This document shows positions 45,416-50,336 of a stretch of 64,000 nt of DNA, one piece after another. Under the pieces are notes generated by a model, which did not search any database, was not told where the DNA came from, and saw only the letters and a list, made by a program, of their open reading frames with translations. Location of the stretch: the NCBI GenBank assembly GCA_017857595.1, contig JAFMCU010000003.1, forward strand, positions 7,403-71,402, written 5' to 3'. Positions within the stretch are counted from its first letter, which is position 1. Every line of letters begins with the position of its first letter. This DNA comes from Thermoprotei archaeon. Its GTDB lineage: Archaea > Thermoproteota > Thermoprotei > Gearchaeales > Gearchaeaceae. Position numbers and translations under genes: made by a program.

Positions 45416-45700
45416 ATGTCTCAAATAATGGTTAATAAAAGGAATGGTTCTAAAGAACCCTTTATAATAGAAAAAATAGTTGTAAGCTGTGTTAAGGCTG
45501 GTGCTGATATTGAAAGTGCAAGAAAGGTTGCGAAAAATATTGAGAAAGTTTTAGAACAGAGAAAAGTAGAGGTTGTTGATTCTAATGAATTGACCAAACT
45601 TGTTTTTAATGAGCTTAAAAGATTAAATGAAGAATGGTATAAAAATTGGATTGTTTATGATAAGGCAGTAAAAAGGAGAGATACAAGTAAGCTTGTTTAA
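45416..45700 (+). CDS. Standalone ATP-cone domain protein
   Basis: MVNKRNGSKEPFIIEKIVVSCVKAG...VEVVDSNELTKLVFNEL fits the ATP-cone consensus (V.KRdG..E.F...KI); 94 aa, with no attached catalytic domain. Confidence 0.5.
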   Translation: MSQIMVNKRNGSKEPFIIEKIVVSCVKAGADIESARKVAKNIEKVLEQRKVEVVDSNELTKLVFNELKRLNEEWYKNWIVYDKAVKRRDTSKLV

Positions 45701-46113
45701 TATAGTATTTTTTTATACTTAGAAATAGAATAAACTAGGCTTACTATTATAAGAATTGCAGATACATGAGCTATAGTACAATATAAACAAATATAGCCTA
45801 TAACTCCTATTTCAACAAAAATTAAATAAATCAAAGAACCAATGCCAAGAAACATAAAAATAACATGAATTAATACGTCATCATGTCCAGTTAAAGATAA
45901 TAATAGAAAAGCTATAAACCATATCATACCTAATAATGACCAAGGTATTCCAAATAAATGTGAATACGGACTATTCAATACATTTTCGCAACTTATAAAA
46001 GATAAATTTGTATTGCAACTTAACGTAGCATTAGATTCAAAAAAAGTAATATAGCTTGAATCTGAAAAACCCAAAAGAGAAAAAGCTAATATAATGTATC
46101 TAATAATAGTCAT
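45697..46113 (-). CDS. Vitamin K epoxide reductase (VKOR)-family membrane oxidoreductase
   Basis: 4 TM segments in 138 aa; loop Cys pair (LSCNTNLSFISC) followed by SPYSHLFGIPWSLLG, and a CxxC in the last TM helix (ICLYCTIAH). Confidence 0.55.
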   Translation of the reverse strand: MTIIRYIILAFSLLGFSDSSYITFFESNATLSCNTNLSFISCENVLNSPYSHLFGIPWSLLGMIWFIAFLLLSLTGHDDVLIHVIFMFLGIGSLIYLIFVEIGVIGYICLYCTIAHVSAILIIVSLVYSISKYKKILY

Positions 46114-46843
46114 TACATTTTGGTATCAAGGATAATATGAATTGATTTACATTGGGTAAAGTTATGTAACTTGATAATTTATTTAGCGCATTTAAAATCG
46201 CATTTACTAACTGCTGGCTTTCTTGATAAACTGCTTGATATAGCTGTCCTTGTTTAGAACTTATCATTTGTTGTACTTGTTGGAATGATAATCCTAAAAA
46301 TAATGCTGGGCTGATACCAGAGCCTATTCTAAAATATATTCCACCTACAGAAATAAACGGTATTGCGCCGCCTGGGTCATATGTACTAAATAGTTGTTCT
46401 TCTAAAGAATTCATTTGTTGCAACGATACGTTACCATATCTATTACTTAGCTCAACTTCCAAAAATTCAATTTTATTACTTTTGTAGATCGCATCAACAA
46501 AAGTATAAGTTGGTATATTAGGATATGTTTCTTCGTAAGGTGAACTGTAAATTGGTTGTAAGTTGCTCCAATTCCCAAAATGAGATAGAGCCATCACAAT
46601 TGCCCATCTTTCTGCAGCACAATAGGGACAGTATTCTGCACCAATATATATAAATGCTAACTTTCCATTTTGTGTAATAATTGGGTTATTTGGATAGTAT
46701 GTTAAGTTTGTAGCATAAACACCTGTTACTTTATTCGATTCTTGATTCATAATTATATAAATTGAAATTATTAAAATTAAAGCTACAATAAAAATAAATA
46801 TAAAAATATTTCTATTCTTGTTATTCTTTTTTGACTTTTTCAT
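46100..46843 (-). CDS. Membrane-anchored thioredoxin-fold protein (DsbA-like partner of VKOR)
   Basis: N-terminal signal/anchor helix, then AEYCPYCAAERW (CPYC thioredoxin active site); 247 aa; overlaps the VKOR gene start. Confidence 0.5.
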   Translation of the reverse strand: MKKSKKNNKNRNIFIFIFIVALILIISIYIIMNQESNKVTGVYATNLTYYPNNPIITQNGKLAFIYIGAEYCPYCAAERWAIVMALSHFGNWSNLQPIYSSPYEETYPNIPTYTFVDAIYKSNKIEFLEVELSNRYGNVSLQQMNSLEEQLFSTYDPGGAIPFISVGGIYFRIGSGISPALFLGLSFQQVQQMISSKQGQLYQAVYQESQQLVNAILNALNKLSSYITLPNVNQFILSLIPKCNDYY

Positions 46844-46870: not shown

Positions 46871-47920
46871 TTATTGATTCCCTCCGCTTCCTCCTTGATT
46901 ACTGTTGCCTCCTCCGCCTAACCTGTCTTTTAGTTTCTCTCTGACTTCGTCTGCAAGTTTCTTATTCTCACTTATTACACTATCCCATTTACCTTTATCA
47001 TTTCCAAGTATTTGTAATATAACATTCTCTAGTAACTTTTGCATTTCTTTTATATCTCTTGTAACTAAAGCATCTACTTCCCAACTTTCATCACCAAATT
47101 CTTTATTATACCACTTGAATCTAGGGTCTGTTTCTTTTGCTGGATTTGGAGGAAGATTGTAATCAAGAATTTGCTTCGCTGTTAATGCAACTCTAACTTC
47201 ATCTAAATCAAAGTGATGGAATATCTTAAGTAAGGCCATATAGAATCTATTAATATCCAATCCACTTGGATCATGGTCACTTATTATTAAAGCCCAAACT
47301 TTATGACCTTTATCTAATTTTTCTTTTATTTTTGGGGCTAATCTTGATATTCTGGTCCAGACTGCACCATAACCTTTGAACGAAACCAATGGAACATAAT
47401 ATTTTTCGCATACAGAATTAATTTGTCCAAAAAGTTCTCTTTTCTCTGTAAAGACATAAACACTCTTGCCTATTTCTTCCCAAGGGTCTTTACCCATTGC
47501 CGGTATTGATTCCATTGCTTTCTTTATAGCTTCATCTATATTTGAAACTCCCCATAACACAGGTTCAAAGTATAAAGATTCTGTCTCTGTAATCATGTTC
47601 CAATCAACTATACCTAATATTCTTGCTTTAAGCATGAAATCAACTAGCTTATTATAATGCTTAAGATCGTTTCTATAATCAGGTAATTCTAAGCCTACTA
47701 GATAGTAATGAACCTGTCTTATTGTTACTGGATTGTTTAACTCAGCAAAAGCCTTTTTTACAAAATCAACTGCTCTCTGTTGCCAATCCGTTTTTACAAT
47801 TCTTGCTTTCTTATCTTTAGGAACTGTTCTTGTTACATCCTTTTGCCTTCTGCCATACATCTTTTGAAGCCATTTGAGCGTATAATCAGAATCTTTGTGC
47901 TTTATAAGTTTCTCACTCAT
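46871..47920 (-). CDS. Standalone DNA topoisomerase VI subunit A / Spo11-like protein (Mini-A-like)
   Basis: 5Y-CAP-like TIRQVHYYLVG with tandem Tyr. TOPRIM-like VYVFTEKRELF...KGYGAVWTR...LIISDHDPSGLDI, paralleling Top6A VEKxaxF...KGyPDvaTR...DxDPyGxxI. Gly/Asn/Gln-rich C-terminal tail. No Top6B nearby. Confidence 0.6.
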   Translation of the reverse strand: MSEKLIKHKDSDYTLKWLQKMYGRRQKDVTRTVPKDKKARIVKTDWQQRAVDFVKKAFAELNNPVTIRQVHYYLVGLELPDYRNDLKHYNKLVDFMLKARILGIVDWNMITETESLYFEPVLWGVSNIDEAIKKAMESIPAMGKDPWEEIGKSVYVFTEKRELFGQINSVCEKYYVPLVSFKGYGAVWTRISRLAPKIKEKLDKGHKVWALIISDHDPSGLDINRFYMALLKIFHHFDLDEVRVALTAKQILDYNLPPNPAKETDPRFKWYNKEFGDESWEVDALVTRDIKEMQKLLENVILQILGNDKGKWDSVISENKKLADEVREKLKDRLGGGGNSNQGGSGGNQ

Positions 47921-48074: not shown

Positions 48075-49502
48075 TTATATAAACAAAGGCTTTTCATAGC
48101 TTTTTTGCTTAAATATTGTACAATATCTAGCTCTTTGCTCTAATTCAGGGCATCTTCTTAATTTAAAGCAATTTGCATGTGTTATATAAGTCAACTCCTT
48201 TAAATCTTCTTTAATAAACACTTCATTTATTTTGTTATTTATCATGCTTGCTATGATTTGAGTTTCAGCTTGTGCTAACTCACAGCATCTATTTCCTATG
48301 AAGCCTCTAAAATTGAAAATATTATAGCCATCTAGTCTTAACGTTGAAATCATAGCTAAGTTAGATGGTAAAACTATTATAGCATCGTTTTCATCTTCAT
48401 TTTTTAATTCTTCATAAAGATTAATTGAATCATTTAAAAATTCCACATACTTTTTTTGTTTATCACTGTTTAATGTTCTGATCGAATTTGGAACTATCAT
48501 CTCCATCCTCTCTGCTGCTTCATATAAACTTATTGATTGTTGTTGAATAGTTCTATGTCTTATTATTTGGTGTCTACTTACAAGACTATCTTTAACGCCA
48601 AAAAGGAAAAATAAATCATTGAAATCTCTAAAGTTGCCTTCTTTTACTCCTTCAACTATAATATTCTTTATTTCATCTTTTGTGAATTTCTTGATTGGTT
48701 CTACATTATATGATATCAAATTAACTTCATTTTTTCCATTCTTAGAAAATACGTTCTCTATTTTTTTCGCAAAATTTGAAGATGCAAATGGAAAAGGGTT
48801 AGGATAAAATTTGCCTATCTTTATTTGACTACTTACAACATTCACTAAATTTCTATATTCTATGCTAAGGGAATCACTTAAATTGTTAATTAAATCAGTC
48901 CATATTGAAGGAATTTTTAAGCTATGTTCTTTATAATATCTGATGGTTGATAACATGTGGACTATATGACTTAAGTTTATGCTACAACTGATAAATGTAC
49001 CTATGCACAACGGTAAATGATATCTTGCATCTTCTTCAGGTTTTCTTGTTTCTAAAACTTGAATTTCGGACATCAATTCGTTATAAAAAGAATAAGCTCT
49101 CTCTACATAACTTATAATTTTATTCTCTTTATTTTTTAGTGTGTTAGGAATGAAGATAAAAATGTTCTTTTCTTCTTTCTCTTTAATTAATGGCATCGTA
49201 TATCTTAATGACTGTTGTAGAAAATTGCTTCCTATTGAATATGATACTAGCGCTAATGTTGCAAGTCTGGGTAAAATTAAAGAAGCATGTATATTTGGCA
49301 TTTCCAAAATAGATGAATAGCCATCTTTAATTGCTGCTATTATATCTGAACTTCTTTTTTCAACTTCCTCCTCATTCAATTCATAATCGATATAATGTGG
49401 AGTTTTTTTACTCCATGTAGAAATTGTTTCGGAAATTAATCGCTTAAAGGATATATTGCATTGAATATCGATAATACTTGCAGATCTTAAAATCTTTATC
49501 AT
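48075..49502 (-). CDS. thyX: Tandem-duplicated flavin-dependent thymidylate synthase (ThyX)-like protein
   Basis: First half: ...LE(M)-18 aa-SYS-IGSNFLQQSLRY... keeps SxRY but has SYS in place of RHR; ARYHLPLCIGTF matches ThyX ARivLPLnlyTrF. Second half: IIRHRTIQQQSISLY keeps RHR but loses the Arg of SxRY; IVLPSNLAMISTL...NIFNFRG. 475 aa, about twice a normal ThyX. Confidence 0.55.
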   Translation of the reverse strand: MIKILRSASIIDIQCNISFKRLISETISTWSKKTPHYIDYELNEEEVEKRSSDIIAAIKDGYSSILEMPNIHASLILPRLATLALVSYSIGSNFLQQSLRYTMPLIKEKEEKNIFIFIPNTLKNKENKIISYVERAYSFYNELMSEIQVLETRKPEEDARYHLPLCIGTFISCSINLSHIVHMLSTIRYYKEHSLKIPSIWTDLINNLSDSLSIEYRNLVNVVSSQIKIGKFYPNPFPFASSNFAKKIENVFSKNGKNEVNLISYNVEPIKKFTKDEIKNIIVEGVKEGNFRDFNDLFFLFGVKDSLVSRHQIIRHRTIQQQSISLYEAAERMEMIVPNSIRTLNSDKQKKYVEFLNDSINLYEELKNEDENDAIIVLPSNLAMISTLRLDGYNIFNFRGFIGNRCCELAQAETQIIASMINNKINEVFIKEDLKELTYITHANCFKLRRCPELEQRARYCTIFKQKSYEKPLFI

Positions 49503-49533: not shown

Positions 49534-49860
49534 TTATTTAAAAAGCTCTTTGACAAATTTAATTAGTTCAGAATTATTCGTTATTTTTACCGAATATTTT
49601 AACTCCAGTTCGTTTATAATTCTATTCAGAATTATTTGAGAGAGATCATTAAAAATTTCAATTAAAAATTCTATAAAATCATCTATTCTATCGACAATCT
49701 CATCTTTATCCAAGTTCTTTCTTATTTTCAAATGAAAATATAAAGTTTCTGTTTCATCTTTTCCAAAAAGCATCTTAAGAACGTTGTCAATAATTTTGAT
49801 TAGTTCTTTCTTTTTTTCATTTTTTGAATCTTTTTTGCTGTAATTATTTCCTTTATGCAT
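49534..49860 (-). CDS. Hypothetical small helical protein
   Basis: 108-aa ORF, K/E-rich; no motif recognised. Confidence 0.2.
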   Translation of the reverse strand: MHKGNNYSKKDSKNEKKKELIKIIDNVLKMLFGKDETETLYFHLKIRKNLDKDEIVDRIDDFIEFLIEIFNDLSQIILNRIINELELKYSVKITNNSELIKFVKELFK

Positions 49861-49967: not shown

Positions 49968-50336
49968 TTACAAATTGTTGGAAAGTATTCTATTTTTTGC
50001 GGATTCTTCACTAATAAATTCAATAAGTTTACTATTAACTTTATTATTCAATTCCGCGATTTGCTTCTCATCTTTATTAATGATTAGATAGATTTTTGAT
50101 CCAATGTCTAGAGCTGTAATTGTACTTCTTAAAGCCTCTTTTTCTAAATTTTTTTCATCCACAACGTTAAAATATATTCTTTTATCATTATGTGAAAGTA
50201 GAATATCTATCTTATGAGCTATATTACTTTTACCAACTACCTTTACATCTTCAATCAAATTAAATTTTGTACTGCTTTTCTTATTCAACTCACTTAATAA
50301 TTCTTTAAATGCTAAATTTTTGTTCTCTAACGCCAT
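49968..50336 (-). CDS. Small PD-(D/E)xK protein, Holliday-junction-resolvase (Hjc/Hje)-like
   Basis: LAFKELLSELNKK...VGKSNIAHKIDILLSHNDKRIYFNVVDEK parallels Sulfolobus Hjc ...SAVERNIVSRLRDKG...SGSKRKDPIPDIIALKNGVIILIEMKS (E...D...(D/E)xK spacing); 122 aa. Confidence 0.35.
   Translation of the reverse strand: MALENKNLAFKELLSELNKKSSTKFNLIEDVKVVGKSNIAHKIDILLSHNDKRIYFNVVDEKNLEKEALRSTITALDIGSKIYLIINKDEKQIAELNNKVNSKLIEFISEESAKNRILSNNL

Follow-up and report, generated by a model that had tools for sequence, protein, structure and literature searches.

A gene on the minus strand of the 64,000-nucleotide stretch of contig JAFMCU010000003.1 analysed here (the window; Thermoprotei archaeon, assembly GCA_017857595.1) encodes a 475-residue protein composed of two fused ThyX domains. 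The protein probably is a functional flavin-dependent thymidylate synthase (ThyX, also designated FDTS) whose two domains share out the active-site residues between them; we put the probability of this reading, which includes a predicted activity and an inferred assembly, at about 0.72. The domain content, the partition of the residues, the conservation of this partition, and the genomic association of distant family members with genes of the deoxythymidine monophosphate (dTMP) pathway were observed directly. The gene and its two domains are located as follows.

48075–49502, minus strand: tandem (double-domain) ThyX, complete open reading frame (ORF) of 475 aa plus stop, from the ORF list, with ATG start; Pfam Thy1 in two stretches.
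48786–49502, minus strand: N-terminal ThyX domain, residues 1–239 (Pfam Thy1, hhalign); proposed supplier of the Ser/Arg loop, the R147-type Arg, and the H53/T55/E58-type residues.
48078–48785, minus strand: C-terminal ThyX domain, residues 240–475 (Pfam Thy1, hhalign); proposed supplier of RHR, the R174-type Arg, and the Cys cluster.

A protein with two ThyX domains

An earlier note, made by reading the letters of this DNA, had described two ThyX-like domains in the 475-aa ORF, and both are significant in profile comparisons. The whole protein matches Pfam Thy1 (PF02511) in two stretches with an E value of 1.7e-30 and 106.7 bits (cut-off, 24.8). Scanned alone, the N half scores 56.0 bits (E 5.7e-15; residues 45–185) and the C half 54.8 bits (E 1.3e-14; about residues 271–428). 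When the family profiles of the two halves were compared with canonical single-domain ThyX, hhalign returned a probability of 100% for each, with E values of 3e-40 (N half) and 6e-39 (C half), whereas comparison of the halves with each other gave a profile E value of 5e-14 in hhalign and of 0.1 in BLASTP. Both halves thus are far closer to canonical ThyX than to each other, indicating that the duplication is old and that the copies have specialised. With 107 relatives as input, AlphaFold2 (AF2) gave a model of one rigid body at very high confidence, with a predicted local distance difference test (pLDDT) score of 95.4 and a predicted TM score of 0.93. Foldseek searches of the PDB with this model retrieved only single-domain ThyX, mainly that of Thermotoga maritima (about 205 columns, target TM about 0.66); no solved double-domain ThyX was among the matches.

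Partition of the active-site motif

Residues were assigned by profile alignment to the T. maritima enzyme (Tm), using a query sequence that agrees with PDB alignments over residues 42–176. The following elements were located on the minus strand.

49302–49322, minus strand: G61-Y-S-S-I-L-E67, N half, corresponding to Tm G52-H53-E-T55-P-F-E58 (third-subunit flavin/folate contacts; hhalign).
49236–49244, minus strand: S87-Y88-S89, N half, degenerate RHR position, aligned to Tm R78-H79-R80 (hhalign).
49200–49211, minus strand: S98-L99-R100-Y101, N half, retained SxRY, aligned to Tm S88-G89-R90-Y91 (hhalign).
49023–49025, minus strand: R160, N half, corresponding to Tm R147 (phosphate of deoxyuridine monophosphate, dUMP); retained in the N half only.
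48552–48560, minus strand: R315-H316-R317, C half, retained RHR, aligned to Tm R78-H79-R80.
48522–48530, minus strand: S325-L326-Y327, C half, degenerate SxR position, aligned to Tm S88-G89-R90, with Tyr for Arg (hhalign).
48288–48290, minus strand: R405, C half, corresponding to Tm R174 (activates dUMP); retained in the C half only.

The contiguous RHRxxxxxxxSxRY signature is present in neither half; the N half reads SYS...SLRY and the C half RHR...SLY, so that only both halves together make up the full signature. The equivalents of Tm R78, R80, R90, R147 and R174 all occur in the chain, as R315, R317 and R405 in the C half and R100 and R160 in the N half. The earlier note had assigned SxRY with SYS in place of RHR to the N half, and RHR with loss of the SxRY Arg to the C half, and this motif reading was confirmed residue by residue. 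Its further statement that both halves keep the "LPL" motif stands in part: the motif is not equally intact, as the Arg preceding LPL (Tm R147) is found in the N half only (R160), while I375 occupies this position in the C half.

Conservation of the partition throughout the family

An exhaustive profile search (E ≤ 0.001) retrieved 2543 relatives. Among the 150 best representatives of clusters (at 50% identity), more than 100 have a length of 420–555 aa and match the whole family profile in one stretch; the window protein shares 22–70% identity with its tandem relatives. According to genome matches and source names, tandem ThyX proteins occur in Thermoproteota, in Woese-, Pace- and Micrarchaeota, in bacteria of the Candidate Phyla Radiation (CPR), in Thermodesulfobacteriota and Smithella, in Zixibacteria, and in Oscillospiraceae and Lachnospiraceae of the Firmicutes. 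Those that carry a name are all annotated as "FAD-dependent thymidylate synthase" (FAD, flavin adenine dinucleotide).

An alignment of 107 tandem ThyX proteins, with a mean column identity of 16%, was used to follow the individual residues. A homologue search with the profile of this alignment recovered the close homologues only and added no named distant relatives. In the N half, S98 is conserved in 105/107, R100 in 106/107 and R160 in 87/107 sequences; in the C half, R315 and R405 are present in all 107 and R317 in 97, and position 316 is occupied by H or Q in 98. S98, R100, R315, R317 and R405 occur together in 95 of the 107 proteins, and the window protein has all five. The reciprocal positions have lost their arginines just as consistently. 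Arg at both N-half equivalents of R78 and R80 was observed once and at the N-half R174 equivalent never, and Arg occupies the C-half equivalent of R90 in two sequences and that of R147 in none (each of 107). The equivalents of H53, T55 and E58 are likewise conserved in the N half only, their C-half counterparts being variable; in the G61 region, the family profile has G in 95/107, H in 94/107 at the position of Tyr62, S or A at the T55 position, and D or E at the E58 position.

The complementary loss of motif parts that the earlier note had proposed is therefore borne out, since the split is conserved over 107 divergent double-length proteins. By the same token, the architecture, which the note had considered unusual unless shared by related taxa, is common to all close relatives and to >100 clusters from many phyla. 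The split double-length design is a family-wide trait and not a peculiarity of the window, whose protein is an ordinary member of the family.

Very strong divergence between the N and C halves, and the general experience that one copy commonly degenerates after domain fusion in oligomeric enzymes, would also fit an arrangement in which catalysis is confined to a single half while its partner, a pseudo-enzyme domain, has a structural role only, so that the apparent complementarity would be due to coincidental decay. We regard this as quite unlikely, because the full set of dUMP-binding arginines is present in neither half (R90 and R147 are missing from the C half, and R78, R80 and R174 from the N half), and because the retention of S98 and R100 of the N half at 98–99%, among sequences with so low a mean column identity, is not expected of a mere scaffold.

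The contiguous RHR...SxRY signature was found in one of 115 double-length proteins, namely P0131. This metagenomic protein of 488 aa has a full RHR...SQRY in its N half and only RHR in its C half, and may represent an intermediate in a step-wise division of the active site.

Genes of the dTMP pathway beside distant tandem thyX genes

Clustering of neighbouring genes, confirmed with Pfam, identified genes of the dTMP pathway next to tandem thyX in distant members of the family. A thymidylate kinase gene is located directly downstream of tandem thyX in six distant loci (L020, L021, L022, L025, L026, L027), a dCMP (deoxycytidine monophosphate) deaminase gene adjoins it in three (L017, L024, L029), and genes of NrdD and NrdR adjoin it in three (L022, L024, L025). 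The presence of these neighbours supports genuine dTMP synthesis and disfavours a new function.

An altered function, which the earlier note had offered as an option, would imply a ThyX-derived enzyme which methylates or hydroxymethylates another nucleotide, or a flavoprotein other than a thymidylate synthase. In that case, a new specificity would account for the changed motifs. The absence of a contiguous RHR...SxRY from either half, the score under the thyX equivalog cut-off and the additional Cys cluster, which is missing from characterised ThyX, would fit this reading, and ThyX-like domains with other predicted roles do exist, for example a ThyX-MsrB fusion without the Ser (PMC6211008). 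However, every residue known to contact dUMP (the equivalents of R78, R80, S88, R90, R147 and R174) is retained in the chain and near-invariant in the family, and in distant members a gene for thymidylate kinase or dCMP deaminase follows immediately. The public annotation as FAD-dependent thymidylate synthase points in the same direction, albeit as homology-based naming only. A changed function thus appears unlikely.

Proposed assembly

The active sites of ThyX are built from several subunits. In the enzyme of Paramecium bursaria chlorella virus 1 (PBCV-1), one site comprises Gln75 and Arg182 (equivalent to Tm R174) of monomer A and Ser88/Gln89 of monomer B (PMC3498832). R174 activates dUMP, and S88, R90 and Y91 assist methylene transfer (PMC8316439). 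In reviews, ThyX is presented solely as a homotetramer whose four active sites are identical. Because the sites are built from different monomers and the residue sets are conserved, the residue sets of the tandem protein can be mapped onto subunit roles.

We infer that the quaternary structure is a homodimer of two chains imitating the canonical ThyX tetramer, i.e., a pseudo-tetramer that holds two FAD and has two active sites, both composite. Each complete site would be built from three domains, one C half and both N halves. The C half would take the "A role" with Q312, R315-H316-R317 and R405 (Tm Q75, R78-H79-R80 and R174), and one N half the "B role" with Q96, S98, R100, Y101, E157 and R160 (Tm E86, S88, R90, Y91, E144 and R147). 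The other N half would take the role of the third subunit with Y62, S64, E67 and N176 (Tm H53, T55, E58 and N163); the R165 position would belong here, too. Two reciprocal pseudo-sites, with an N half in the "RHR/R174" role and C halves in the other roles, would be dead. In terms of D2 symmetry, the four sites of the tetramer can be written by their contributing subunits as (A,B,C), (B,A,D), (C,D,A) and (D,C,B). If A and D were C halves and B and C were N halves, (A,B,C) and (D,C,B) would be complete and the other two sites dead, with one true twofold axis left.

A route of this kind has a precedent in the monomeric dUTPase (deoxyuridine triphosphatase) of herpesviruses, where duplication and fusion of an enzyme with interface sites, together with complementary decay, led to fewer composite sites. 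The logic is the same, whereas fold and chemistry are unrelated, so that the precedent concerns the evolutionary route only.

The obligate pseudo-dimer with composite half-sites envisaged in the earlier note hence is plausible, in view of the same partition in 107 relatives and of the two-monomer site in a solved ThyX (PMC3498832). Several points nevertheless weigh against a functional thymidylate synthase with shared sites. The assignment of subunits relies on the description in a single paper (PMC3498832) and on a symmetry argument, and the structural model comprises a single chain only. The score of 65.4 bits for the thyX equivalog NCBIfam TIGR02170 is under the cut-off of 87.9. In the window protein and its close clade, family-consensus residues are replaced at the equivalents of H53 (Tyr62) and R165 (Ser178). 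The only dTMP-related neighbour in the window is an ATP-cone protein encoded 2.4 kb from thyX. Within the 64-kb window, no second thymidylate synthase was detected, as the ThyX hidden Markov model matched the tandem ORF only and an Escherichia coli ThyA query matched nothing, which is a weak test. Moreover, a literature search revealed no activity, oligomer or cofactor data for any tandem ThyX.

A conserved Cys cluster next to the active site

48120–48284, minus strand: Cys cluster C407-x37-C445-x5-C451(PE)-x9-C461, putative metal site linking the C-terminal tail to the active-site helix (family conservation).

The C half contains four cysteines, C407, C445, C451 and C461, that were not part of the earlier note. 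C407 is located two residues past R405, at the position of Tm D176, whereas C445, C451 (within a G-x-C-P-E element) and C461 belong to the C-terminal tail. Among the 107 tandem proteins, C407 and C451 are each conserved in 101, C461 in 99 and C445 in 77; C407, C451 and C461 occur together in 99, and all four in 75. The motif R-x-C-x2-AQWEIR ... P-x-C-x3-4-G-x-C-P-E-x2-5-C is common to tandem ThyX (48120–48290, minus strand) and to all 18 of the nearest single-domain ThyX proteins (P0089–P0165). It is found in no solved ThyX: T. maritima has RADSHAQ and Mycobacterium tuberculosis RASEHAD at the corresponding position, and neither has the tail.

Judging from the sequence pattern, the cluster beside R405 probably binds a metal, Zn or Fe-S. 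It probably is not strictly required for catalysis, since a few tandem members (P0063, P0076) lack it. More speculatively, and in our view doubtfully, an iron-sulfur cluster at this site might feed electrons to the flavin, which would define a large, as yet undescribed class of single-domain and fused ThyX that is reduced by ferredoxin-like donors and not directly by NADPH. If so, the fused two-site pseudo-tetramer would be the most derived form of that class. A literature search found no paper which links ThyX to an Fe-S cluster or mentions the four-Cys motif.

Relation to known ThyX proteins

Both halves of the window protein have the fold and belong to the Pfam family of the canonical homotetrameric ThyX enzymes (T. 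maritima TM0449, M. tuberculosis, PBCV-1). All dUMP- and FAD-contacting residues of these enzymes are recognisable in the window protein, and the likeness extends to sites predicted to lie across domain interfaces and, in relatives of the window ThyX, to the dTMP-pathway neighbours. The tandem form differs from them in having two domains per chain, a signature that is contiguous in neither half, an additional Cys cluster, and a score below the TIGR02170 cut-off. Its equivalents of RHR and R174 are confined to the C half and those of SxRY, R147 and H53/T55/E58 to the N half, and two sites, as opposed to four, are predicted per pseudo-tetramer.

The existence of the duplicated architecture is known already, and such proteins are routinely annotated. 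A "domain-duplicated ThyX" in Chloroflexi and "a few other species" was mentioned by Valas & Bourne in 2009 and described as uncharacterised, with no analysis of motifs (PMC3224940). Those proteins and the present family have in common two ThyX domains per polypeptide, and we assume that they are orthologous; compared with the 2009 account, the data presented here show a far wider spread of the architecture as well as the residue partition. This remark (PMC3224940) was all that a literature search on tandem, fused or dimeric ThyX brought to light, with no description of a structure or mechanism, and the search found the residue partition, the predicted two-site assembly and the Cys cluster nowhere described. 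The ThyX of Chlamydia, a biochemically active protein that would be about 530 aa long, was given no weight as evidence: Chlamydia was not among the relatives retrieved, and the reviews consulted do not mention the size of its ThyX.

The closest single-domain relatives by profile score are "four-Cys" ThyX proteins (e.g., P0155, P0148, P0133), which have the Cys motifs in common with the C half of the window protein. In contrast to the tandem form, they consist of one domain with an intact contiguous RHR...SxRY, and presumably are ordinary homotetramers.

ThyX is a target for antibiotics, and there is continuing debate about its physiological reductant and about how its subunits cooperate. A fused form with divided residues would be a natural asymmetric ThyX, in which a single mutation hits one site role only and thus helps to assign the roles of the subunits. 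The Cys cluster, missing from every solved ThyX, is a lead to an unrecognised cofactor. For genome annotation, it is relevant that approaches based on motifs or equivalogs can miss tandem ThyX, which probably is the only thymidylate synthase in many genomes of DPANN archaea, CPR bacteria and thermophilic archaea. What gives these observations their value is the design shared by the whole family, together with the Cys cluster, rather than the window locus.

Integrity of the gene and its locus

The tandem thyX region is low in GC (25–31%), and its surroundings consist of ordinary chromosomal genes, which encode an XPB helicase, electron transfer flavoprotein (ETF) subunits, a VKOR protein, a DUF929 protein and the ATP-cone protein. 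Twenty-two public metagenome contigs carry an identical 475-aa protein. The closest named genome is that of the Yellowstone "Crenarchaeote SCGC AAA261-N23", with 68% identity to the window ThyX, followed by other metagenome-assembled genomes of Thermoproteota with 46–61% identity. The ordinary chromosomal context and the identical protein on 22 contigs were counted in favour of a functional ThyX.

The double length of the protein could in principle be an artefact, either of mis-assembly or of an overlooked stop or frameshift that made one ORF out of two neighbouring thyX genes. Nothing was found that speaks for it; the databases do contain half-length relatives, such as P0019 (236 aa, on a 2.5-kb contig), which may be fragmentary or derive from split genes. 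Against it, according to the ORF list the reading frame continues through the entire 475-aa ORF, the same protein was called on 22 independent contigs, full-length relatives occur in >100 clusters from many studies, and the AF2 model is confident across the linker. The probability of an artefact is practically negligible, and a fusion artefact was rejected on the recurrence of the uninterrupted ORF in the 22 contigs and >100 clusters.

Some proteins of 230–290 aa match only the N half (e.g., P0092, P0095, P0071) or only the C half (e.g., P0086, P0072, P0163) of the family profile. They could be fragments from contig ends, or a genuine split version of the tandem enzyme, encoded by two genes and heterotetrameric.

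Two small ORFs on the same strand lie upstream of thyX. They are conserved in the closest relative, locus L001, at 46–48% identity, and had no significant family match; the end of the 108-aa ORF and the start of thyX are 31 bp apart.

49534–49860, minus strand: ORF of 108 aa.
49968–50336, minus strand: ORF of 122 aa.

The Topo VI-A-like neighbour and adjoining genes

46871–47920, minus strand: stand-alone Topo VI-A/Spo11-like protein, 349 aa (PHROG 6247, AF2 model, conserved residues).

The 349-aa protein encoded next to thyX matches PHROG 6247 ("DNA topoisomerase") with an E value of 1e-46 and, at the sequence level, weakly matches the Toprim domain in 1d3y. The best PDB match of its AF2 model (pLDDT 91) is the A subunit of Topo VI from Methanosarcina mazei, over 325 columns. 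Invariant in 38 homologues are R68 and Y72 within R-Q-x-x-Y-Y (the catalytic Tyr motif) as well as E159 and D215-x-D217 (the acidic residues of Toprim). The family comprises >1100 unannotated proteins of about 300–340 aa; we presume that the window protein probably is a "Mini-A" type IIB-like protein.

That the Topo VI-A-like neighbour adds interest to thyX, as suggested in the earlier note, found no support. The gene adjoins thyX in the closest relative L001 only and is absent from the neighbourhoods L002–L006, and a functional link between the two genes was rejected for this reason. Between L001 and the window, the Topo VI-A-like protein is 92% identical, compared to 68% for ThyX and 47–76% for the products of the flanking genes, a difference that may point to a recent transfer or to strong constraint.

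Overlapping genes at 45697–46843 (minus strand) code for a DUF929 protein (247 aa, with a thioredoxin-like CxxC) and a VKOR-family membrane protein (138 aa), which look like a disulfide-forming pair; the pair adjoins the Topo VI-A-like gene in L001, too. The ATP-cone protein is encoded at 45416–45700 (plus strand). Its 94 residues contain an ATP-cone domain only (Pfam E 1.9e-11), with neither an attached reductase nor the zinc ribbon of NrdR, and it may be a stand-alone nucleotide-sensing regulator.

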